Shown here: positions 1 through 19,168 of the stretch, piece after piece
Layout of the letters: the number at the start of each line of letters is the position of its first letter
How positions within the stretch are numbered: the stretch's first letter is position 1
Origin: a virus
DNA: 19,401 bases
Direction: 5' to 3' (one strand)
UHGV virus genome: UHGV-0140152
The notes under the pieces: generated by a model
What the model was told of the DNA's origin: nothing
Database searches by the model: none
The model's input: only the letters and a program-made list of their open reading frames with translations
Program-made: the position numbers and the translations under genes

Positions 1-126
1 CTGGCTCCGCGTAAGATGCGCTTCGGCATCTCCGAAGGTATGGTGATGGCTGCTGGCCCCGGCGGGAAAGATATCTTCCTGTTAAGCCCGGATGCTGGTG
101 CTAAACCTGGCCACCAGGTTAAGTAA
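1..126 (+). CDS. metG: methionine--tRNA ligase, 3' end only (gene starts upstream of window)
   Basis: Frame-1 translation [41 protein letters not shown] then TAA at 124-126; matches the MetRS C-terminus as I remember it. Confidence 0.75.
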
Positions 127-147
127 TTAAGCAACCATTCTTCACAA

Positions 148-176
148 TGCCCGGCAACACGCTGGGCATTTTTATA
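148..176 (+). terminator. rho-independent terminator of metG
   Basis: Inverted repeat ATGCCC...GGGCAT followed by TTTTT directly after the metG stop. Confidence 0.7.
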
Positions 177-209
177 TAGACACAATCCCTTCTGACTTTA
201 ACAAACCCT

Positions 210-275
210 AAAACAATTTGTTTTCTGCCTTTTGTTAATTGAGATAATAAGCCACATAAGAAAACAAATTGTTTC
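210..275. promoter_or_regulatory. two AACAA-N-TTGTT palindromic operator-like sites upstream of the first island gene
   Basis: aaaacaatttgtttt (about 210-224) and aaaacaaattgttt (about 261-274). The same palindrome family recurs upstream of the genes starting at 2166, 2711, 3662, 7473 and 19365. Confidence 0.5.
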
Positions 276-287
276 GGAGTGGTTGAA

Positions 288-587
288 ATGTTGAACATTA
301 CCCAAGCCTACCAGGTGGCATTGATCAGTTCATCTCATACATCAGAGGAAGATGCTCGCCGATTCATGATCGCAAGCAATGAGCTGGATTGGGTTTCGCA
401 AATTGACGGCGGTTGTATTGTCCACGCCGGGTTACAGGATGATGTCTGGAAAGACGACTTGCGTCGATATGGTATATCCGAAGGCGCGATTGCTAACATT
501 CAGAAAGTACTTGATGTAGGCTTTGACTCTGTACATTTTGATTGTGGTGCGCCGGTCGTTGAAGGGCTTGAGTGCTGGAACTGGTAA
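288..587 (+). CDS. hypothetical protein (about 100 aa)
   Basis: Track ORF 279..587; ATG at 288 sits 8 nt after GGAG. The track start at 279 is a GTG alternative. No family recognised. Confidence 0.6.
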   Translation: MLNITQAYQVALISSSHTSEEDARRFMIASNELDWVSQIDGGCIVHAGLQDDVWKDDLRRYGISEGAIANIQKVLDVGFDSVHFDCGAPVVEGLECWNW

Positions 588-699
588 ATCTGCAAACAGA
601 TTCAAACCGTTGATAATGGCGGTCACAATTTGATTCTTTTCTATAAGAATCCGTTGATCGCCACTACTCCCCTTCCATATCTGCAATCACATCCTTAAA

Positions 700-1560
700 T
701 ATCAATAAGTTATAGTTGTTTATACAAACCAGAAAACAACTGAATAACAGATCAATGAAACCTCAACACTTTCACCCGATTTGGTCTAAAAAATTGACGT
801 TTTCACACATCACTTCTTATACCCGCAATTCTACGCAGCAGACAGCGCCACAGCGTCCAATTTTCACCACAGACGACTCAACACACTACCAACAAAAACA
901 CACGCTCAAAATCGCTCCCGTTGCGTTACACAACCATATAAACAACTTATTTTCAGGAATAACAAAACAACTAAATAACACATGCGCCATTCCCAAAAAC
1001 AACCAACCTCTTTATGGCAGGCTACCGAAAAGACCCACCTCTTCTTCCCAGGCTACCGGACAACCAACCTAACTTTCACAGGCAATACGAAAACATTCAT
1101 GCGCGCGATACCCACGACACGCCATTCCCCAAACAGCGAAGAAACACCAGAATCACTGAAACCCCAACGAAGCCTGTTACCGCAAGGATTCTCTCAATCC
1201 CAAAAGACACGAAACATAACAATCACGGGAAACGCCATTACCCAATACACGAATAACCACAAAAGCCTTTCACACACTCCAGACAAACAACTCAAACACA
1301 ATAACGAAAGGAATCGCCCACCTGCCATTACTCCATACACGGAGAAAAACAATCACCAAAACGACGAGAACACCCCATAGAAGAACCACCGCAAAACGAA
1401 CGAAACCATTTACACCGACAGAGAGAACAACACACCCAATTCACCAACAGAATTAGTCGCCGTATAGAACGTTCTGGAAGGAGTGAGCATTAACGTCCAT
1501 AGAGAGGTTGAGACAGATAAAACACGAAGAAAACACAACATGTATAGCGAAGAAGCCAGG
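700..1560 (+). other. about 850-bp non-coding tract, A+C-rich and G-poor on the plus strand
   Basis: Strong strand compositional skew. The only ORFs are overlapping low-complexity P/T/N/Q-rich frames with no RBS. Contains degenerate roughly 30-bp repeats starting caggctaccg (about 1017-1083). Confidence 0.6.
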
Positions 1561-10549: not shown

Positions 10550-11113
10550 TTAAAATGGAAGGATTCGGTCAACCCAATCGAAGAGAACAATCATTCTTGC
10601 ATGTTCCCTGATTTTCATCGTCACCTGACAAGCATCAACGCCTAACGACACTCCCTCTATTTCACGGCCATCCGCCATGTAGACCCTTATAGATCTGCCG
10701 TTTTGATGAGCTTTGCGACATATCTTAAAAAAGTCACGACGTGATGGCTGGTTGTTCACGTAGTCAGGATGTACGGTAAGCCTGTCCGCAAAGTCCCCAT
10801 CTACTTCTGGAGGTATAATCGTTTCTATAGAGCTAACTTTCCCAAGAGGAAGACGAACTCGACGCTCTTTGCTTCTTGGAACGGGTGATAGATCAAGTTT
10901 GTTGCGTGATGGTAGTGTTCCCTGTACATACATGTTGAATACCTGTCCATCTTCCATCGTGACTTTTACAGGAACAGAGTGTGCCCTCCAGAACATCAAG
11001 GTATGTTCCACATTAGAATAGTCTCGCGGCCATACTTCAGCCGGTATGCCGTATGTAATATCTTTCGTCGTCATATCATTATAAAGTGGTTGGCAATATG
11101 TCCATTGTACCAT
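10550..11113 (-). CDS. hypothetical protein (187 aa; possibly 174 aa from an internal ATG at about 11074)
   Basis: Track ORF. The 11113 start overlaps the lipoprotein gene by 35 nt; the alternative ATG lies a few nt after the lipoprotein stop. No clear RBS for either. Confidence 0.55.
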   Translation of the reverse strand: MVQWTYCQPLYNDMTTKDITYGIPAEVWPRDYSNVEHTLMFWRAHSVPVKVTMEDGQVFNMYVQGTLPSRNKLDLSPVPRSKERRVRLPLGKVSSIETIIPPEVDGDFADRLTVHPDYVNNQPSRRDFFKICRKAHQNGRSIRVYMADGREIEGVSLGVDACQVTMKIREHARMIVLFDWVDRILPF

Positions 11114-11514: not shown

Positions 11515-12066
11515 TTAATAGTTAACTTGGGTTCTGTTGTAAATGTCTATTAAGAAATCGTCCTGCTTTATGTTTTTACAGGTTTTGTCGAAGGTTAATT
11601 CACCTGATAATATGCAGGCGTTGTATTTTTCGATAAAAATATTTAATGCCTGCCAATTTTTGAAAAGAAAAGAGAAACCATATGACGACTCGCTGCCGTT
11701 TATCAACCCTCGTGCGCTGGGATATTTGTATAAATTTGAATGTAGCTCTAATTTACCAGGGGCAACGTCGCCACAGGAATTCATAATGACGAACATTTTG
11801 GATATATCAAAAGGATAAAAAACTATGCCGCAATTTGTCCTGTTGCCTTTAATATCCTTCACGTAAATATAGTGCTCGTAACAATCTTTACGCGAGGCAT
11901 TTAACCTGTATTGTATTAGTTTGTGCTCTCCTTTTTGAGAGGGTATTAGGTATCGTGTACGCTTGTCTAAGCAGGATTTCGTCTTTGTACGGTATTGCGA
12001 CATACTGCTCTTTATTTCCGCTGCACTTAGAAAGTTCTCATTAAAAGGCAAATGTCCCATTTGCAC
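11515..12066 (-). CDS. hypothetical protein (183 aa) homologous to the N-terminal domain of the HNH protein at 12312..13292
   Basis: GGAGG RBS 5 nt upstream. ...YGFSFLFKNWQALNIFIEKYNACILSGEL aligns with ...LGYSFAFKNRLSIEMFLITLIDYIDSGKI of the HNH protein. No nuclease motif. Confidence 0.7.
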   Translation of the reverse strand: MQMGHLPFNENFLSAAEIKSSMSQYRTKTKSCLDKRTRYLIPSQKGEHKLIQYRLNASRKDCYEHYIYVKDIKGNRTNCGIVFYPFDISKMFVIMNSCGDVAPGKLELHSNLYKYPSARGLINGSESSYGFSFLFKNWQALNIFIEKYNACILSGELTFDKTCKNIKQDDFLIDIYNRTQVNY

Positions 12067-12311: not shown

Positions 12312-13292
12312 TTAATTGGTGTTTTTGTTCTTCTCTTTTTTGCTAATTTCATCACATGTAAGGTTCATTATGTCTATGTTTTCTTGCTTTTGAAGGTTGC
12401 CGACAATTTTTTTGCGCAATTCATAAAATCGCTCGCGTGGTATAGCTTCCTTGTTGCCGTTGATGTGAAGTATTGCGTGACAGCTAGGGCAGACGGCAAT
12501 CAGATCTGTTTTTGGGTTCACGCTTCGTGCATCTTCGCCTTGTGAAAGTGGGACGATGTGGTGAGCGTGTAGCAGCGTTTTCGTTTCTTTGCCGTCAATT
12601 TCCTTGCCGTATATTTCCGACATCGTTCTGCAACATAATTGACACCTGTAGTCTGCGTTTGCCAGAACGTCATTCCTTAACCCGGATACGCGGCTACGAT
12701 GTTGCGACTGGATTAATCTTGTTTCGCCCTCTATATATTCCTCAACTTCTTCTTTCTGGAGGTCGTAGCTGATTTCTTCTTGAGTCGGATGGACTTTTTT
12801 GTATAGAAGATCAAGATATTTAATGTCCTCTGTTATATATTTGGAATCCTCTAGCGAGGATATTTTTCCTGAGTCTATGTAGTCAATTAATGTAATAAGG
12901 AACATCTCTATCGATAGCCTGTTTTTAAAGGCAAACGAATATCCAAGATGTCTTCTATCTCCTGAATGAATTGGCGTCCAATGAGATTTCTCAATTTTTT
13001 GTGGTGTTACGCAGATACCTTTGCCGATATTGTTTACATGTTCCAATAATTGATAAACAGAATTAATGCGGTAAGCATGTGTTACTAAAGAATTTATTTT
13101 TCTTGTGCCGACGGAGGATTTTGTCATAACAACATGATGAGATATTTGTTTTTTTAAAATCAAATCATACGATGTAGCTTTTTGGTTTTCGCCTTTGTCG
13201 GTTTTTTTTATTAAATTTAGTTTTTTATTAGAGGCTATTTTCTCTATTTCTTCTCTAACTTCTTTTATCGTCATGTAAGTTTCTTTTGTCAT
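12312..13292 (-). CDS. HNH endonuclease, McrA-like C-terminal domain with an unrecognised N-terminal domain (326 aa)
   Basis: C-terminus YRCQLCC...LLHAHHIVPLSQGEDARSVNPKTDLIAVCPSCHAILH is an HNH motif with two Cys pairs, arranged like McrA. AT-rich gene. Confidence 0.8.
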   Translation of the reverse strand: MTKETYMTIKEVREEIEKIASNKKLNLIKKTDKGENQKATSYDLILKKQISHHVVMTKSSVGTRKINSLVTHAYRINSVYQLLEHVNNIGKGICVTPQKIEKSHWTPIHSGDRRHLGYSFAFKNRLSIEMFLITLIDYIDSGKISSLEDSKYITEDIKYLDLLYKKVHPTQEEISYDLQKEEVEEYIEGETRLIQSQHRSRVSGLRNDVLANADYRCQLCCRTMSEIYGKEIDGKETKTLLHAHHIVPLSQGEDARSVNPKTDLIAVCPSCHAILHINGNKEAIPRERFYELRKKIVGNLQKQENIDIMNLTCDEISKKEKNKNTN

Positions 13293-13390
13293 TATAATTC
13301 GACCTACTGGAATATCTTGATTTAAGAGGCTACAAATATCGTTCAGCCAATCAAGAAATTTTTTCAGCCGGAGGTTTGTACTTCAAAAAA

Positions 13391-13406
13391 TGTGATGAAT
13401 GTCACA
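13391..13406. promoter_or_regulatory. perfect CRP-consensus-like palindrome TGTGA-N6-TCACA, about 105 bp upstream of the HNH gene
   Basis: tgtgatgaatgtcaca within the duplicated promoter segment; on the minus strand it is followed by TTTTTT. Confidence 0.45.
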
Positions 13407-13431
13407 TGCAGGTGCGCTCATACACCTGCAT
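13404..13431 (-). terminator. hairpin after the stop of 13440..14006; likely terminator of the helicase operon
   Basis: CATGCAGGTG cgctcata CACCTGCATG, a perfect 10-bp stem, 9 nt past the stop codon. Confidence 0.5.
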
Positions 13432-13439
13432 GTAGACTA

Positions 13440-14006
13440 TTAATCATTCAATAATCTATATTTGCTTTTGATTAAATCTTCACCTTTTCTGGTGAACACA
13501 AAACCAAATTGCGATTTTTTGTTCAGTCGAAGAACTCTGTTATCCAGTGCATCGGTTGACGGAATTAGTGTCTGATCATCTATCCAATTTAGTAGCGTAA
13601 GAAAGTTCAGCAACCTCAACGTTGTTGTGCGAAGCTCTTTCGATATATTTTCAATGCTGGCAATTCGTCTTTCTTTTTTCTTTGGCGTTTCGATTAACTT
13701 CGCTTGAGAGGTGGACAATGAATAGATATTTTCATTGTCCTCATCAAACAACAGATGTTGGGTAAGTTTGCTAAAAAAACCTCGTGCGGATTCGCTTGAT
13801 AACACTCCCTCTTTATTCATATCATTAGTTATTCTGTACAAGAGTGGACCGTACTTCATTTCAGGATAACGTTGATAAAAGTTAAGTAATTCAAAAGCAG
13901 CATTAGCACCAACAAGAAAATCAGAAGGATCGCTGACCTTCCAGAAAGAATGATTTTTCTTAGCGCCTGTGGTGTCAACAAATGATAATTCTTTTAAACA
14001 ACTCAT
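13440..14006 (-). CDS. hypothetical protein (189 aa, MSCLKELSFVDTTGAKK...)
   Basis: Track ORF 13440..14039; preferred start is the ATG at 14006, 6 nt after AAGGAG. No family recognised. Confidence 0.7.
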   Translation of the reverse strand: MSCLKELSFVDTTGAKKNHSFWKVSDPSDFLVGANAAFELLNFYQRYPEMKYGPLLYRITNDMNKEGVLSSESARGFFSKLTQHLLFDEDNENIYSLSTSQAKLIETPKKKERRIASIENISKELRTTTLRLLNFLTLLNWIDDQTLIPSTDALDNRVLRLNKKSQFGFVFTRKGEDLIKSKYRLLND

Positions 14007-14071
14007 GATGTACTCCTTTCTAACAAGTGAGCACATCATAGAATTGGTGGATAGGGGGTAAATATGGAACG

Positions 14072-14350
14072 TTACGGCAACCTGCTCAGTATTTCCTCCA
14101 GATCTTCTTTGGTCATATTAGAGTTCTCATAAATACGCATAATTTTCTCACGAGTCTTAGCAGAGACTCCAACGGCAGATGAAACTTTGTCAAATTCAGC
14201 CATTGTCATTGTCTCCAGAATGGCATTGATAACTTCAGCCTTAGACATTTTGATATTTTTTTCTTTTAGTTTCACTTGAAACTTTCCAAGTTTGTCATTG
14301 GCCTTATCCGACAATGACACCTGACAATAAGTTGTTTTCTTTTCGCTCAT
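14072..14350 (-). CDS. small putative ribbon-helix-helix DNA-binding protein (92 aa)
   Basis: N-terminal strand-helix-helix pattern (TTYCQVSLSDKANDKLGKF...MSKAEVINAILETM); start is 2 nt after the helicase stop, suggesting translational coupling. Confidence 0.55.
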   Translation of the reverse strand: MSEKKTTYCQVSLSDKANDKLGKFQVKLKEKNIKMSKAEVINAILETMTMAEFDKVSSAVGVSAKTREKIMRIYENSNMTKEDLEEILSRLP

Positions 14351-14352
14351 AA

Positions 14353-15912
14353 CTAATCTCGTTTCAGAACTCCAAAATCGAATGTGCCATCAATTGGCAA
14401 TACACCTTCTGCAAAGCCAGGTGTGGTGTCGATGATGTGTTTTCGCTCATAAGAGTGAGACAACAGGTATTTGTTGCTAATGTCAATGAAATCAGTGATA
14501 AAACACACGTTTGCCTGATTTTTTTTTGCTCGTAAGCCACGACCGACACGCTGTCTCATTTCAACTTCTGCTTTCCCACCACCAGCAAGAATGACCGCGC
14601 CCACGCTTGGCACATCAACACCGACATCCAGAATAGTCGAGCCTATTAAAACATCTATTTCGCCAGACGCTAAACTGTTCAGCTTTGCTTGCCTTGTCGT
14701 CTGGTTCGATTCCCCATAGATGAAGTCAACTCTAAGGCCGGACTCTTTCATCATCTCCATCAGGATTTGCCCGTGGCGTTTAAGACGAACCAGAGTCATG
14801 CAGTTGAGAGAATGTTGCTTATAGAGCAATGCTTCTCGTACTATGGCCTCGTTTCGTCCCAAATTATACACGATCCCCAACTGATAAGCTTTTTGGTAGG
14901 CAGTGCTCATACCTACCCTAAAATTGAGGTGTTTGTTGGCAAGTTCTGCCTTGATTCTGACCTCGTCTGGTTTGTAGGCAACTTTATGATAAAGGAAATA
15001 TGGCTTTGCCAGAATACCTCTATCAATCAGGTATTTTTCTGTAACTTTAATTTCAATTCGCCCGGCCACAGCCATCAGACGCATGTTGGCTTCTGTAGAA
15101 GCCTTCATGAACGGCGTTGCCGTAAGCGCCAGGCGATAGTCTGCGTTCGTACATAATCTGGCAATGTCATAGAAATTAGAGCCTGAAGACTCATGCGCCT
15201 CTTCCAGAATAAGAAGAGAGACACTTGAAAGGAAGCGCTTCACTAACTCCTGACGTTTGAGGTGGTAGCTCTTCTTATCTGGTGTTGCATCGCGTGGTGG
15301 TTCTTCGAGGAAACTTGCAATAGTTTGAACTGTAGCGACGTTGATATGTCGTGATACCTGAAACTCACCCGAGCCAATGATTCCAACCTTTTGGTCTTTT
15401 AACCACGGTTCGCCATTTTTGGCGCGGTAGTCGATGGATCTCTGGAAGTTTTCGGCCATCTGAAACATCAGAACAGATCGGGTTGTTAAAAATAATGTCA
15501 TTCGACCGATACGTGCAGCTGCTTTGCAGGCAACGTTAGATTTCCCACCACCAGTAGCGATCTGCGCAATCATCATTCCCTCGCGAACCAGTGTTTCCAC
15601 AGTCTGATCCTGATACGCATAATCAGGATTGTATGGGAATGGGTTAACCGCCGGATTTGGCTTTCCAAGCGCCGGGGCTTTGTCTTTGCGGATATGAACA
15701 CATTTGATGCCCGCCTTGTTCAAGTTCGCCGCTACAGGCTTGGCAAAGCCAGCAGGGAACGAGTTTTTACTCCAGTGGAACATCGTGCTTGTGCCCTTCC
15801 AGTCGCCAGTGTCGACTTCGTAGCTCAACATCTGTTGCACCAGTTGCTTTACCTTGTCATCTGCGCCAGAAATAAGCGCATTTACTGCGTTAGATACAAT
15901 CCGAACAGTCAT
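14353..15912 (-). CDS. SF2 DEAD/DEAH-box helicase (519 aa)
   Basis: Walker A ATGGGKS, motif II LILEEAH (DEAH variant), motif III LTATP, motif VI QRVGRGLR. About 110-aa N-terminal extension of unknown function. Confidence 0.85.
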   Translation of the reverse strand: MTVRIVSNAVNALISGADDKVKQLVQQMLSYEVDTGDWKGTSTMFHWSKNSFPAGFAKPVAANLNKAGIKCVHIRKDKAPALGKPNPAVNPFPYNPDYAYQDQTVETLVREGMMIAQIATGGGKSNVACKAAARIGRMTLFLTTRSVLMFQMAENFQRSIDYRAKNGEPWLKDQKVGIIGSGEFQVSRHINVATVQTIASFLEEPPRDATPDKKSYHLKRQELVKRFLSSVSLLILEEAHESSGSNFYDIARLCTNADYRLALTATPFMKASTEANMRLMAVAGRIEIKVTEKYLIDRGILAKPYFLYHKVAYKPDEVRIKAELANKHLNFRVGMSTAYQKAYQLGIVYNLGRNEAIVREALLYKQHSLNCMTLVRLKRHGQILMEMMKESGLRVDFIYGESNQTTRQAKLNSLASGEIDVLIGSTILDVGVDVPSVGAVILAGGGKAEVEMRQRVGRGLRAKKNQANVCFITDFIDISNKYLLSHSYERKHIIDTTPGFAEGVLPIDGTFDFGVLKRD

Positions 15913-15976
15913 AAACCTCTTTCCTTAGTGCCTTTTGTATGTTATTTGGCTATTATAATAAGTAAGCAATTACTTA
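15913..15976. promoter_or_regulatory. compact divergent promoter region with palindromic operator
   Basis: Self-complementary tattataata containing TATAAT on both strands, followed by the palindrome TAAGTAA-gcaa-TTACTTA at about 15959-15976. Confidence 0.5.
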
Positions 15977-16675
15977 GTGGATTGTAGCAATAAAATGGAT
16001 GTAAAAATTACGATTTTGCAGGTTGATGTTGCCAACCTTCGCCCGAATACCTGGAACACCAATTCGGTTGGTGCGCAGAATTTTGAAAAACTGAAAGGTT
16101 CTATCGAAAAATTAGGCTTTTTTAAACCAATTTTGGCTCGTGAAATTGAAGATGGATTTTTTGAAATCCTCGGTGGCGAACATCGCTGGCGTGCCGCTAT
16201 TGAGCAAGGAATTTCAACGGTTCCAGTGCTTTCTGTGGGCAAAATTAGCGATGTCGTAGCTAAACAGATGTCACTGGTGGACAACGAGCGATATGGTGAA
16301 GACGACCAAATCGCATTGCAACGCTTCATTGAAGAAATTCAGTCAGAACTTGACTATCAACTGTCTGAAATCGCCCCGTATGACGACGAAATCTCGATGG
16401 TTTTAGCAAAAGAGGCGGCAATCGACCTTGAAGCACTGGAGGCGTTGTCTCGTGGTAGTGATGAGCCTGTCGATACCGACAAACGAGAGAAAACCGAACG
16501 TGTGGGGGCGGAACATCAGACCATGCGCTTCAAAGTAACTTTCGATGCGTCAGATCGTGTTGCAGAAACCATAAAAAACATCATCAAAGAGCAGGCTATT
16601 AACACCGGTAATGAAATGGAGAACGCTGGTGAGGCTCTGGTGTGGCTGGTCGACTACTACAAGGAGCGTATGTAA
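15977..16675 (+). CDS. ParB/Srx-like N-terminal domain protein (about 226-232 aa)
   Basis: ParB-box-like motif ILGGEHRWRAAIEQG. The track start at 15977 is GTG; an alternative ATG lies at 15995; no strong RBS for either. Confidence 0.7.
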   Translation: MDCSNKMDVKITILQVDVANLRPNTWNTNSVGAQNFEKLKGSIEKLGFFKPILAREIEDGFFEILGGEHRWRAAIEQGISTVPVLSVGKISDVVAKQMSLVDNERYGEDDQIALQRFIEEIQSELDYQLSEIAPYDDEISMVLAKEAAIDLEALEALSRGSDEPVDTDKREKTERVGAEHQTMRFKVTFDASDRVAETIKNIIKEQAINTGNEMENAGEALVWLVDYYKERM

Positions 16676-17343
16676 TGACCAAAAAGTTTGAAATCGTATA
16701 TCGCGACCCGGCAGATCTTATTCCCTATGAGATGAATGCCAAAAAGCATGATGAACAGCAGATCCGAGATCTGGCCGCAGCCATTAAAAAGCGCGGATTT
16801 GACCAGCCAATTACGGTCGATAAGAACGACGTAATTATTACTGGCCACGGCCGCCGTGAGGCTGCAATTTTTGCTGGACTTGAGCGCGTACCGGTTATTG
16901 TTCGCGATGATCTCAGTGATGACGAGGTTCGTGCGAAGCGCCTTGAAGATAACCGACTTGCCAGCATTGATTACGATGCAATTAAGCTACAGAAAGAGCT
17001 TGAGTCGCTTGTTCTGGACGATATCGAGGTTTTCGGCTTTGAAGAGCGTGAGTTGAATGTTCTCGTTGGCAGCATGACAGAAGAAATGGACACCGACTCG
17101 CTAGTTATCGATCTGGGCGAAGAAACTAAACGACAGAAGGATGAACACACCGAGATCAGTCGTGAAGTTGCAGCGGAAGAAGTACGTGTTGTCGACGTAT
17201 TGGGCTTTAAAACGCTCCCTGCTGGCTCTGCCATTGTTGTTGGTGATTTGCTTGCCCACATGGAAGAAATGACGAGAGAAAGCGGGGTAGACGCATTTGT
17301 GGCATATGCGGAGAAGATCTCTTCCGGGGAGATGGCTGCATGA
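16675..17343 (+). CDS. second ParB/Srx-like domain protein (222 aa)
   Basis: Motif IITGHGRREAAIFAG. Preferred start is the ATG at 16675 within track ORF 16642..17343, 8 nt after AAGGAG and overlapping the upstream stop by 1 nt. Acidic C-terminal half. Confidence 0.75.
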   Translation: MTKKFEIVYRDPADLIPYEMNAKKHDEQQIRDLAAAIKKRGFDQPITVDKNDVIITGHGRREAAIFAGLERVPVIVRDDLSDDEVRAKRLEDNRLASIDYDAIKLQKELESLVLDDIEVFGFEERELNVLVGSMTEEMDTDSLVIDLGEETKRQKDEHTEISREVAAEEVRVVDVLGFKTLPAGSAIVVGDLLAHMEEMTRESGVDAFVAYAEKISSGEMAA

Positions 17344-18005
17344 GCAAATACATCATCAACGTATCGTTTCAGACACGCGTAAATAAAACCACGCGCACGT
17401 TGGAAATCGCTGAGTCGTTCGGGCTTGGCCTGGACGAAAAAGAGTGGACGCTTTACGACAATCTGGAGCTGGAAGTGAAGCAGGGCGATGTGGTGTACAT
17501 CACCGGCCAATCCGGTTCAGGTAAATCCGTTGTGTTGCGCGAGCTGCAACGCCAGATGAAGGATGAAGGGCTTTCTGTAGCTTCTATTGATGACTTTACC
17601 TTCGATAATGAGGTTAACGTCATTGACCAACTGGGCAAAACTACCAGTGATGCGCTTGGGTTGTTATCTATGGCAGGTCTGAACGATGCATATCTGTTTG
17701 TTCGCAAGCCTTCTGAAATGTCAGACGGTCAGAAATATCGTCTCAAGATTGCCAAACTGATTGAGTCAGGCGCTAAAGTGTGGGCTGCTGACGAGTTCGG
17801 TGCTGTTCTCGATCGTGTAACCGCTCAGGTTGTGGCATCTAACCTCCAGCGTGCCGCTCGAAAGGTTGGTGCGACGGTAATGGTGGCGACGACTCACGAA
17901 GACTTGAAGAACGCGCTGCGCCCGGATATGCAGATCACCAAGCACTACAAAGAACGCGTGAAGGTGGAGTATCACAATGGTAGTCATGATGAGGCTCATT
18001 CATGA
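17340..18005 (+). CDS. stand-alone ABC-type ATPase, nucleotide-binding domain only (221 aa)
   Basis: Walker A GQSGSGKS, signature-like SDGQKYR, Walker B plus D-loop VWAADEFGAVLD, H-loop ATTHE. No permease gene nearby; start overlaps the upstream stop. Confidence 0.8.
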   Translation: MSKYIINVSFQTRVNKTTRTLEIAESFGLGLDEKEWTLYDNLELEVKQGDVVYITGQSGSGKSVVLRELQRQMKDEGLSVASIDDFTFDNEVNVIDQLGKTTSDALGLLSMAGLNDAYLFVRKPSEMSDGQKYRLKIAKLIESGAKVWAADEFGAVLDRVTAQVVASNLQRAARKVGATVMVATTHEDLKNALRPDMQITKHYKERVKVEYHNGSHDEAHS

Positions 18006-18892
18006 CGGACATCATCATTAAACGCTACCGCCCTGAAGAGTTTCCGCGTCATCTGGACTTTCTGGAGCGAATGACAGTCACAAAGGGAACTGTAGAGGAC
18101 TGGCACGCTCTTAAGTCGCTTCACTACAAAACAGACGGCAAACCTTTCGCGCCAACTTACTATCGCTGCGAACTTGACGACCGTCTGGTGGGCGTCGTGG
18201 TTATGGCTTACCCGAAACTACTGCTGGCACCTCGCCACCGCATGTTTCCTAAGTTGAAACCAACCACCAATACCACCGTGGCTAACCAGTACTGGGGTCG
18301 GTACGTGAATAACAACTTTGCGGTGATCAGTCGCTCAGTTGTGGATACTCAGTATCGTGGCGTAGGCGTCTCTTATCGAATGATTAACCTGGTTAGCAGG
18401 ATGCATGACCGGCCAATCATTGAGATCCAGTCCTCGATGAGCAAATACAATCCCTTCGCCATGAAAGCAGGGTTTAAGTTCATCCGCCCTGAGCGACCGA
18501 AGAGCTATGAAAGTGCACTGCGTGTTTTCCAGCGTCATTTTCGCTCCGACCCGGGTGATAACGAGGCGATCGTCAAAGAGTTGTTCGCAATGAGCGAGTC
18601 ACGTCGTCGCCGTGCACTGCGTGATATGGTGGCGGACTACCACAAGAACAGTTCCCTGGCAAAAGCTGGGCGGAATCGTGGCACGACGATTCAGGACATT
18701 GCCGACAGTCTGGTGGACGAGGCCAGCATTGTGAAGCTGCTCAAGGACATTCACAACCTGAGCTTTACGTCTCCGCTGTATGGTGTGTACCGAAACCCTG
18801 ACTTTGGTCGTCGACTGCCTGACACGCTGCCACTGCTGGCATTCGACAAACAACCTTTGGATAAACCGTTAGAAATTGCTTTACCGGCATAA
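18002..18892 (+). CDS. GNAT-like acyltransferase-fold protein with C-terminal extension (296 aa)
   Basis: Motif-A-like AVISRSVVDTQYRGVGVSYRMINLV and motif-B-like YNPFAMKAGFKFI; start overlaps the ABC ATPase stop. Confidence 0.55.
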   Translation: MTDIIIKRYRPEEFPRHLDFLERMTVTKGTVEDWHALKSLHYKTDGKPFAPTYYRCELDDRLVGVVVMAYPKLLLAPRHRMFPKLKPTTNTTVANQYWGRYVNNNFAVISRSVVDTQYRGVGVSYRMINLVSRMHDRPIIEIQSSMSKYNPFAMKAGFKFIRPERPKSYESALRVFQRHFRSDPGDNEAIVKELFAMSESRRRRALRDMVADYHKNSSLAKAGRNRGTTIQDIADSLVDEASIVKLLKDIHNLSFTSPLYGVYRNPDFGRRLPDTLPLLAFDKQPLDKPLEIALPA

Positions 18893-18901
18893 GGATTTGC
18901 C

Positions 18902-19168
18902 ATGACGTTAACCGACAAACAAAAGGACATAATCAAAACGCTCAATCTCGGTTATGAGCGAGGTCATCTACTTGATCTGGACGAATTGCTTGAAGTTTTG
19001 CCGTACAAGACAACCAAGCAAAGTATCCAGTTCTCAATTCGCGCTCTGATAAAAAAGGGGCTGGTGGAGAAAGGGCATACGCGTCAACGCAGTGACAATC
19101 GCTATCACCGCCGGACTCTTGGGTTAACCACTTTAGGTCGAGCCAAAGCGAAGTTACTGGTGATGTAA
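18902..19168 (+). CDS. small basic protein, possible winged-helix DNA-binding regulator (88 aa)
   Basis: Track ORF; start 9 nt after the upstream stop; HTH-like segment TTKQSIQFSIRALIKKGLVEKG; last gene of the operon. Confidence 0.5.
   Translation: MTLTDKQKDIIKTLNLGYERGHLLDLDELLEVLPYKTTKQSIQFSIRALIKKGLVEKGHTRQRSDNRYHRRTLGLTTLGRAKAKLLVM

Follow-up and report, generated by a model that had tools for sequence, protein, structure and literature searches.

The branch-migration helicase UvsW of phage T4 and its homolog D10 of phage T5 are fork-regression and branch-migration enzymes of recombination-dependent replication (PMC5180179), and the small T4 protein UvsW.1 has been described as UvsW's "potential DNA-binding partner" (PMC7824862). 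In T4 genes e, 49, soc and I-TevI, a stable helix that holds the Shine-Dalgarno (SD) sequence and the AUG gates translation (PMC3014915). Here we compare with these systems a locus in UHGV-0140152, a 19,401-nucleotide (nt) stretch of virus DNA ("the window") that is a piece of a phage-plasmid of the SSU5 supergroup (described in PMC7969092). The locus consists of three consecutive open reading frames (ORFs), all on the minus strand, for a superfamily 2 (SF2) helicase of 519 amino acids (aa), a 92-aa protein and a 188-aa protein. An earlier reading of the letters alone (the original prediction) took them for a three-gene operon and possibly a new anti-phage system. We consider it likely that the first two genes make up a conserved cassette of an SSU5-like phage-plasmid, that the third is an accessory gene restricted to some lineages, and that the three are not one defence system. 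A literature search on SSU5 phage-plasmids together with the helicase found no paper.

A phage-plasmid helicase assigned to the UvsW family

The window is 93-94% identical in DNA to non-mobilizable Escherichia coli plasmids of ~110 kb, and the region is likewise 93-94% identical to phages Cyrano (pLF82), CMS-2020a and PhiR41_1; its identity to Salmonella phage SSU5 and to Klebsiella phage-plasmids is only ~75-77%. The three ORFs, the SF2 motifs, the tight junction between the helicase and 92-aa genes and the closing hairpin are all present as originally predicted, and all three genes are under purifying selection relative to their Cyrano and pEC332 orthologs, with ratios of nonsynonymous to synonymous divergence (dN/dS) of 0.07 for the helicase, 0.06 for the 92-aa protein and 0.15-0.17 for the 188-aa protein, which together confirms the three-gene observation. 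Synonymous divergence from the same two elements along positions 13440-16675 was 0.02-0.06 on the ParB side, 0.12-0.15 in the helicase gene and ~0.5 in the 92-aa and 188-aa genes, a jump that points to a recombination boundary near the 3' end of the helicase gene.

Motifs I (QIATGGGKS), II (LILEEAHE), III (LTATP) and VI (QRVGRGLR) are legible in the translation of the helicase. The Pfam models ResIII (1.4e-14) and DEAD (5e-14), covering residues 99-268, and Helicase_C (6e-13), covering residues 364-462, all matched over their cut-offs, and PHROG 16, "DNA helicase", matched at 1e-92. Alignment by hhalign of a 31-sequence family of the helicase with T4 UvsW gave a probability of 99.5% and an E-value of 1e-22 over residues 15-479 and 421 aligned columns; within this match, window residues 15-75 align with T4 UvsW 15-93. 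Among PDB sequences, phmmer matched the helicase to XPBII (1.6e-11), Rad25 (7e-8) and UvsW (2oca, 8e-8). The Pfam model UvsW_N (PF21241) has no direct match to the N-terminus of the window helicase itself, and membership of this domain family is therefore assigned by profile and transitivity: the helicase homologs P0091 and P0097, which are 48-50% identical over 99% coverage, reach 34.2 and 29.1 bits where the cut-off is 25.3. What had been called an uncharacterised N-terminal extension of ~110 aa is thus, by the family profile and the PF21241 matches of the homologs, a UvsW_N domain. Judged by its sequence, the helicase belongs to the T4 UvsW family, with a UvsW_N domain in front of an XPB/UvsW-type motor. 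It is new to this family as a member only, and its Cyrano ortholog is already annotated "UvsW helicase".

The longer, 564-aa helicase of phage hairong was considered as a possible fusion of helicase and partner; this was rejected, the extra length being an insertion in lobe 1.

The helicase and a small partner gene form a syntenic pair

The 92-aa gene was found in 825 plasmid records and the helicase gene in 824, with equal per-genus counts in most genera, and the 92-aa gene was present in 12 of 12 SSU5-like phage records. Co-occurrence in other genomes, by which the original prediction had proposed to judge whether the genes belong together, therefore holds at about 1:1 for the first two genes (824/825 plasmids, 12/12 phages). 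It does not extend to all three as a unit, an outcome that the original prediction had itself named as speaking against it: the 188-aa gene was found in 179 of the ~825 plasmid records (~22%) and in 4 of the 12 phages.

In all relatives examined the helicase gene stands back-to-back with two ParB genes, an ABC gene and genes for proteins of ~300 aa and ~88 aa that run into the terminase and portal genes. This layout, with the two ParB genes, the ABC gene and the ~300-aa gene reading towards the terminase and the helicase reading away from it, was seen in SSU5, Cyrano and E. coli pEC332. The same divergent layout was found in Pseudomonas Nickievirus hairong, Stenotrophomonas phage ANB28 and Rhizobium phage B1VFA, and in 7 of 7 metagenomic or genomic contigs with helicases 46-59% identical. 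In SSU5 the genes for a DnaB-like helicase, primase, ligase and DNA polymerase lie at 34-50 kb and the UvsW-type helicase gene at 98-99.7 kb. Since some 50 kb separate it from these replisome genes, the helicase lies outside the replication module proper. The alternative first raised for the locus, a replication module of the mobile element, was closer in spirit insofar as a replication or recombination helper is concerned, but its placement beside a primase or polymerase did not hold.

A small ORF follows the helicase in most, not all, distant relatives with the divergent layout. ORFs of 91-105 aa lie directly 3' of the helicase in ANB28 and in relatives L010, L011, L012, L014 and L015, and as the second downstream ORF in L013, with gaps of 2-43 nt between helicase and small ORF. 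The encoded proteins have a common pattern of a basic N-terminus, a short strand, a helix A and a helix B with (S/T)xxEV(I/V)NAxxE, as well as a C-terminal motif, (M/L)(T/D)xx(Q/D)(L/I)ExxL. Between lineages, dN is 0.31-0.33 for the 92-aa protein and 0.05-0.07 for the helicase, so that the small protein changes 5-6 times faster.

In the 92-aa protein (PHROG 1466, function not assigned), the N-terminal ~45 aa resemble a ribbon-helix-helix (RHH) protein of the CopG kind and the C-terminal half is helical. The merged small-protein profile scored 21.1 against CopG (P 6.5e-4), where 100 shuffles reached at most 16.1; the alignment spans CopG residues 5-39, in a sequence checked against PDB 2cpg, and both small-protein subgroups align to the same CopG residues. 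Arc and Mnt gave no match to the merged profile, and the 92-aa protein itself gave none in NCBIfam or PADLOC. A CopG/RHH-like fold is thus plausible from sequence. As a description, the small RHH-like protein coupled to the helicase in the original prediction stands: its start codon lies 2 nt behind the helicase stop codon (Table 1), and its likeness to CopG/RHH proteins is weak, if consistent. Homology of the 92-aa protein to UvsW.1 was also considered and rejected, hhalign against the C-terminal 99 aa of the T4 uvsW reading frame giving an E-value of 0.33.

The pair, and not the third gene, is expressed in a Cyrano lysogen

Published RNA sequencing of E. coli LF82 carrying Cyrano in LB (PMC9928086 Table 1, S1 Table) covers orthologs of all three genes, whose proteins are 98% (helicase), 93.5% (92-aa protein) and 86% (188-aa protein) identical to those of the window. 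The helicase ortholog CYRAN_118 has a value of 46, and the 92-aa ortholog CYRAN_117 has 114, which is 12 times the local background. The 188-aa ortholog CYRAN_116 has 9, equal to background and ~13-fold below the 92-aa gene, and the ParB-like gene CYRAN_119 has 5, the floor. The ranking of the four genes was kept in the other four conditions (PMC9928086). By these values, the pair of helicase and 92-aa genes is transcribed in the plasmid state. The background value of CYRAN_116, in turn, shows that the third gene is not co-expressed, which fits the hairpin described below and argues against a simple three-gene operon. Of the operon that was proposed at first, what remains is its first two genes, adjoining and expressed; the third lies behind a 65-nt spacer with a hairpin that sequesters its ribosome-binding site (RBS), and has only background RNA in Cyrano.

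A covarying hairpin buries the start of the third gene

Within the 65-nt spacer, a 5' arm AUGAUGUGCUC (14039-14029) pairs with a 3' arm GAGUACAUCAU (14015-14005), and the resulting hairpin buries both the SD sequence AAGGAG (14018-14013) and the start codon (14006-14004) of the third gene, with a folding energy of -24.3 kcal/mol and a z-score of -6.0. An equivalent hairpin was present in 9 of 10 lineages examined, with energies of -13 to -29 kcal/mol and z-scores of -6 to -8. In Klebsiella, Enterobacter and Cronobacter it carries a compensatory G:C to C:G swap and its stem reaches codons 2-3 with more compensatory pairs, and in Pectobacterium wholly different arms, UUAUUAUUCC and GGAAUAAUAA, occupy the same position. 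Across seven aligned sequences, 94.6% of cells were paired compared to 20-46% in slid controls, and two pairs showed double compensatory changes (CG<->GC). The covariation score was 0.164 versus 0.118 for shuffles, 9 of 500 of which reached it. With the SD sequence and AUG locked in this way, cassette transcripts that read through should stay untranslated for the third gene, which by analogy may be translationally gated like T4 e, 49, soc and I-TevI.

A scan of the region for promoters found 16 sites where 9.5 were expected. One of them, a sigma-70-like match (Table 1), has a -10 element that overlaps the 5' arm of the hairpin; hypothetically, and on weak grounds, transcription starting ~7 nt past it would yield an mRNA that lacks the anti-SD arm.

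The third gene is a lineage-restricted orphan

In its longest reading (13440..14039) the third ORF encodes 199 aa. Its true start is almost certainly the ATG at 14006, which has AAAGGAG 7 nt before it and gives 188 aa, the length of the annotated orthologs and of PHROG 13473, which matches the protein at 4e-109; the 189 aa of the original prediction were thus essentially right. In every locus examined where it occurs, the gene lies directly 3' of the 92-aa gene. A 217-aa Xenorhabdus homolog occupies the same slot (E 2.8e-14), and an exhaustive HMMER profile search of the family found 11 matches among 1.84e9 representatives. In SSU5 the slot after the 92-aa gene is filled by a lipoprotein gene, and in non-enterobacterial relatives it holds other genes or genes that resemble cell-wall hydrolases by sequence pattern only.

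The family alignment shows two conserved domains, at residues ~4-85 and ~118-183, joined by a variable K/E-rich linker, and the C-terminal domain looks winged-helix-like by pattern only. No assignment was obtained for the 188-aa protein from Pfam, NCBIfam, PADLOC, the PDB or PHROG functions. The best match of its family profile among PDB sequences, to a NADase C-terminus (E 0.05), was treated as noise. A KilAC/antirepressor identity of the C-terminus was considered and rejected, since there was neither similarity to P22 Ant nor a Pfam or PHROG antirepressor match in nine members; HTH_45 at E 0.076 was the sole trace. The AlphaFold2 (AF2) model of the 188-aa protein, with a mean confidence (pLDDT) of 39.8, is unusable for conclusions on fold, and Foldseek searches of the PDB with the AF2 models of the 92-aa and 188-aa proteins gave nothing below E 0.8. 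The models are of low confidence because the alignments are shallow.

Control regions and neighbouring genes

The 82 bp between the helicase gene and the first ParB-like gene contain TATAAT and an inverted repeat, AAGTAA-N4-TTACTT (15960-15975), a candidate operator. Mean column identity in this region was ~84% across the window, SSU5, Cyrano and Klebsiella p4727, and it is more conserved at the DNA level than the surrounding genes in the SSU5, Klebsiella and E. coli lineages. At the other end, the strong hairpin that was said to close the unit is indeed terminator-like, with a U6 run; its extended fold has -26.6 kcal/mol and a z-score of -5.8, and none of 200 shuffles was equally stable. Enterobacter L017 has a 13-bp terminator-like hairpin of different sequence after the orthologous gene. 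Scans of the window for Rfam families and tRNAs gave no matches.

Besides two ParB_N proteins and a soluble ABC-type ATPase, the divergent ParB block encodes proteins of ~296 aa (PHROG 886) and ~88 aa; the Cyrano annotation makes the former the acetyltransferase half of an MK0520-like ABC-ATPase fusion. The block lies directly upstream of the terminase in every relative examined (L002-L006, L010-L015) and may be related to packaging or DNA modification. Beyond the terminator lie genes for a 326-aa protein with a C-terminal HNH nuclease and for a 183-aa neighbour, which have a common N-terminal domain with the motifs GYSFAFKN and YGFSFLFKNW. At ~13320 the homology with the nearest E. coli plasmids breaks off, so the HNH gene looks like an insertion in a mosaic stretch of cargo; in Klebsiella p4727 the 183-aa protein has a 204-aa relative, and there is no HNH gene. 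Further out, a 187-aa cargo protein has orthologs in Klebsiella p4727, and neighbouring regulators in relatives, whose annotations read transcriptional repressor or FljA-like "repressor of phase-1 flagellin", may be host-directed regulators carried by these phage-plasmids. In distant relatives, genes for Tad2-like and Acb2/Tad1-hairpin proteins (anti-Thoeris/anti-CBASS sponges) and for DHFR lie within a few kb of the cassette, so that the downstream flank seems to be a zone of accessory or anti-defence cargo in this phage clade. Finally, a stretch near the start of the window stands out strongly in strand composition, with a GC skew of -0.33 and an AT skew of +0.29, and contains only short overlapping ORFs (Table 1).

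Table 1. Features of the locus and its surroundings; coordinates are those of the window unless a relative is named.
Feature	Coordinates	Strand	Basis or remark
UvsW-family SF2 helicase gene	14353..15912	-	ORF, 519 aa; Pfam, PHROG, hhalign
UvsW_N-like domain	residues ~1-95, about 15628-15912	-	profile alignment with T4 UvsW
Two RecA-like helicase lobes, motifs I, II, III, VI	residues ~99-490	-	translation, Pfam
92-aa small partner gene	14072..14350	-	ATG 2 nt after helicase TAG
188-aa accessory gene, PHROG 13473	13440..14006	-	start and RBS, ortholog length
RNA hairpin over SD and start codon of third gene	13999..14045	-	fold, covariation
Sigma-70-like promoter match TTTACC, 16-nt spacer, TATGAT	14035..14062	-	consensus scan 9/12
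Intrinsic-terminator-like hairpin closing the unit	13385..13445	-	core stem 13404-13433, U6 run 13385-13390
Divergent control region, helicase / first ParB-like gene	15913..15994	.	82 bp, unusually conserved
ParB block	15977-19168	+	
326-aa protein with C-terminal HNH nuclease	12312-13292	-	
183-aa neighbour	11515-12066	-	
187-aa cargo protein	10550-11113	-	
187-aa protein / neighbouring regulators, site in a relative	L014 9342-9866		
Tad2-like, Acb2/Tad1-hairpin, DHFR gene sites	L011 3437-3727; L012 9999-10238; L015 9381-9842		
Skewed stretch	500-1500		

Proposed explanation and its rivals

In the explanation that we favour, the helicase is most likely a translocase on double-stranded, branched DNA, as its likeness to T4 UvsW and T5 D10 suggests. 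By the same analogy it would be expected to regress forks, to branch-migrate Holliday junctions and D-loops and to remove R-loops, activities that would support recombination-dependent replication, fork restart and the formation of packageable concatemers. The 92-aa protein, positioned like T4 UvsW.1, would be a small DNA-binding partner or a regulator of the cassette. In the close relative Cyrano, both genes are on in the plasmid-prophage state and the divergent ParB-ParB-ABC-terminase block is silent. The third gene would probably be switched on only under a specific condition, such as the lytic phase, a transcript that starts inside the hairpin or a factor acting in trans.

Several results weigh against parts of this picture. 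For the small partner, Pfam RHH models gave no match at E<=10 in four 92-aa orthologs, and the AF2 monomer (pLDDT 51.1) shows, at low confidence, unstructured residues 1-13 followed by helices at 15-30 and 37-47. Given the weak profile match to CopG, the lack of any match to Pfam RHH models, Arc or Mnt and the low-confidence AF2 model, the RHH assignment is plausible rather than proven. Furthermore, the small-protein profiles of the SSU5 group and the distant group match one another only marginally (hhalign, P 0.0022), and after the helicase phage hairong has no small ORF of the 92-aa type and B1VFA has an unrelated 61-aa ORF. The authors of the Cyrano study listed CYRAN_117 as a "moron" (PMC9928086), and lysogen expression of the helicase and 92-aa genes is also typical of prophage moron or defence genes. 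As to the third gene, the hairpin could partly reflect a palindromic DNA operator and not RNA structure, and the sigma-70-like match has no equivalent in Enterobacter L017 or Pectobacterium L020.

Lysogen expression and the moron listing are also what speaks for the suggestion from which this analysis started, namely that the three genes are a novel anti-phage (superinfection-exclusion) system in which the helicase senses or unwinds an invader, the RHH-like protein regulates and the 188-aa protein is the effector. The third gene is patchy and faster-evolving, as such a system might have it, and in PADLOC and NCBIfam the helicase matches helicases of phosphorothioate-linked restriction systems best (PbeA in PADLOC-DB v2, 1e-23; dnd_restrict_1, 4e-16). 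Both matches, however, cover the generic SF2 core only and fall far under the curated cut-offs (59 against 600 bits), and the 92-aa and 188-aa proteins matched 0 families in PADLOC-DB v2. The helicase is a UvsW homolog, N-terminal domain included. Both its gene and the 92-aa gene belong to the core and keep their place beside the packaging block in all relatives examined, and the putative effector is missing in 78% of elements and lacks expression in lysogens. Moreover, in the text consulted on a DefenseFinder screen of 1227 SSU5-group contigs, other systems are named and the helicase cassette is not (10.1101/2025.09.12.675607). A helicase-plus-partner defence system is thus not supported, and we consider it very unlikely. 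Somewhat less improbable, though still doubtful, is an immunity-I-type switch formed by the second and third genes in the manner of P22 mnt/arc-ant, in which the RHH protein would repress an antirepressor-like third gene with the inverted repeat as operator. The RHH-like N-terminus, the high 92-aa and background 188-aa values in lysogens and the winged-helix-like pattern of the 188-aa C-terminus would all suit such a switch, as would the perfect 11-12 bp inverted repeat that overlaps the -10-like hexamer and the RBS of the third gene and whose arms change symmetrically where the 92-aa protein is only ~55% identical. Yet ~78% of elements keep the 92-aa gene beside the helicase without the third gene, the 188-aa family resembles neither P22 Ant nor any antirepressor family of PHROG or Pfam, and the 3' arm always lies on the SD sequence and AUG, with the stem running into codons 2-3 and compensatory changes in it, which argues for RNA structure and not an operator.

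It is less far-fetched, if still rather unlikely, that the pair mainly serves the plasmid lifestyle by restarting forks or clearing R-loops for a low-copy episome of ~110 kb. In its favour, the pair is on in the plasmid state, in which lytic genes are silent, and UvsW-type enzymes unwind R-loops and regress forks. Against this, the cassette lies equally beside packaging genes in relatives without evidence of plasmid maintenance, such as Nickievirus hairong, and also in an element within a chromosome-scale (4.2 Mb) record, and SSU5 carries its own replisome genes elsewhere. A plasmid-phase role is compatible with the two-gene cassette explanation and not exclusive of it. There is also a small chance that the helicase and its RHH-like partner have a lysogeny-phase role that goes beyond phage replication, for example in the exclusion or sensing of incoming DNA or in lysis-lysogeny control, with the 188-aa orphan as a conditionally translated effector or antirepressor; if true, the locus would be a phage-plasmid-specific module of a new kind, linked to a helicase and translationally gated.

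With the conserved cassette as the preferred explanation, a false lead is removed: a defence-like helicase layout turns out to be the core DNA-processing cassette of a very widespread group of phage-plasmids, which includes pHCM2 of Salmonella Typhi and pMT1 of Yersinia pestis. The UvsW family extends into temperate siphovirus phage-plasmids, with a conserved small RHH-like partner at the position of UvsW.1. Since the cassette is on in a lysogen, one may ask how a branch-migration helicase serves a low-copy episome; the RBS hairpin over an orphan gene, with its covariation, offers a directly testable case of translational gating outside T4. Altogether the novelty is modest and comes from three points, a conserved partner that is RHH-like, a cassette expressed in lysogeny and a covarying hairpin at an orphan gene, and current understanding stands.

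Comparison with known systems

Defence systems such as Pbe, Hachiman, Gabija, DISARM, Druantia, Zorya and Dpd also combine an SF2 helicase with accessory genes; the likeness is confined to the helicase core and does not include the partners, and the pair described here is a core syntenic module and not part of a cargo island. As to the small partner, the beta-alpha-alpha pattern (VSLS..KL..F...MSKAEVINAILE) of the 92-aa protein aligns with CopG residues 5-39, and like P22 Mnt the protein is small and lysogen-expressed. It differs from CopG, Arc and Mnt by a 5-residue insertion in helix A and a helical C-terminal extension of ~45 aa, and its gene is linked to a helicase and not to an antirepressor or a plasmid copy-control locus. 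With T4 UvsW.1 it shares position alone, the 92-aa protein looking RHH-like instead. The hairpin of the third gene resembles those of T4 e, 49, soc and I-TevI in that a gene placed after a transcribed unit likewise has its SD sequence and AUG buried in a stable helix; a difference is that here the activating promoter in the 5' arm is only a weak, non-conserved sigma-70-like match.

Among solved structures, archaeal XPBII and Rad25 are the closest relatives of the helicase by sequence, in a match confined to the motor domains; the window helicase lacks XPB's damage-recognition domain and has no TFIIH context. T5 D10 is a branch-migration enzyme homologous to both UvsW and XPB, a likeness that we take from the literature (PMC5180179). 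T4 UvsW is only ~23% identical to the window helicase, it acts in the late, recombination-dependent replication phase (PMC5180179) whereas the present cassette is transcribed in the lysogen, and the element that carries the cassette is a temperate siphovirus phage-plasmid, with no UvsX or UvsY seen in the window. Nevertheless, the two helicases have a common domain order, UvsW_N followed by two RecA-like lobes, with a profile match over ~420 columns, and both are phage-encoded with a small ORF directly 3' of the helicase gene.

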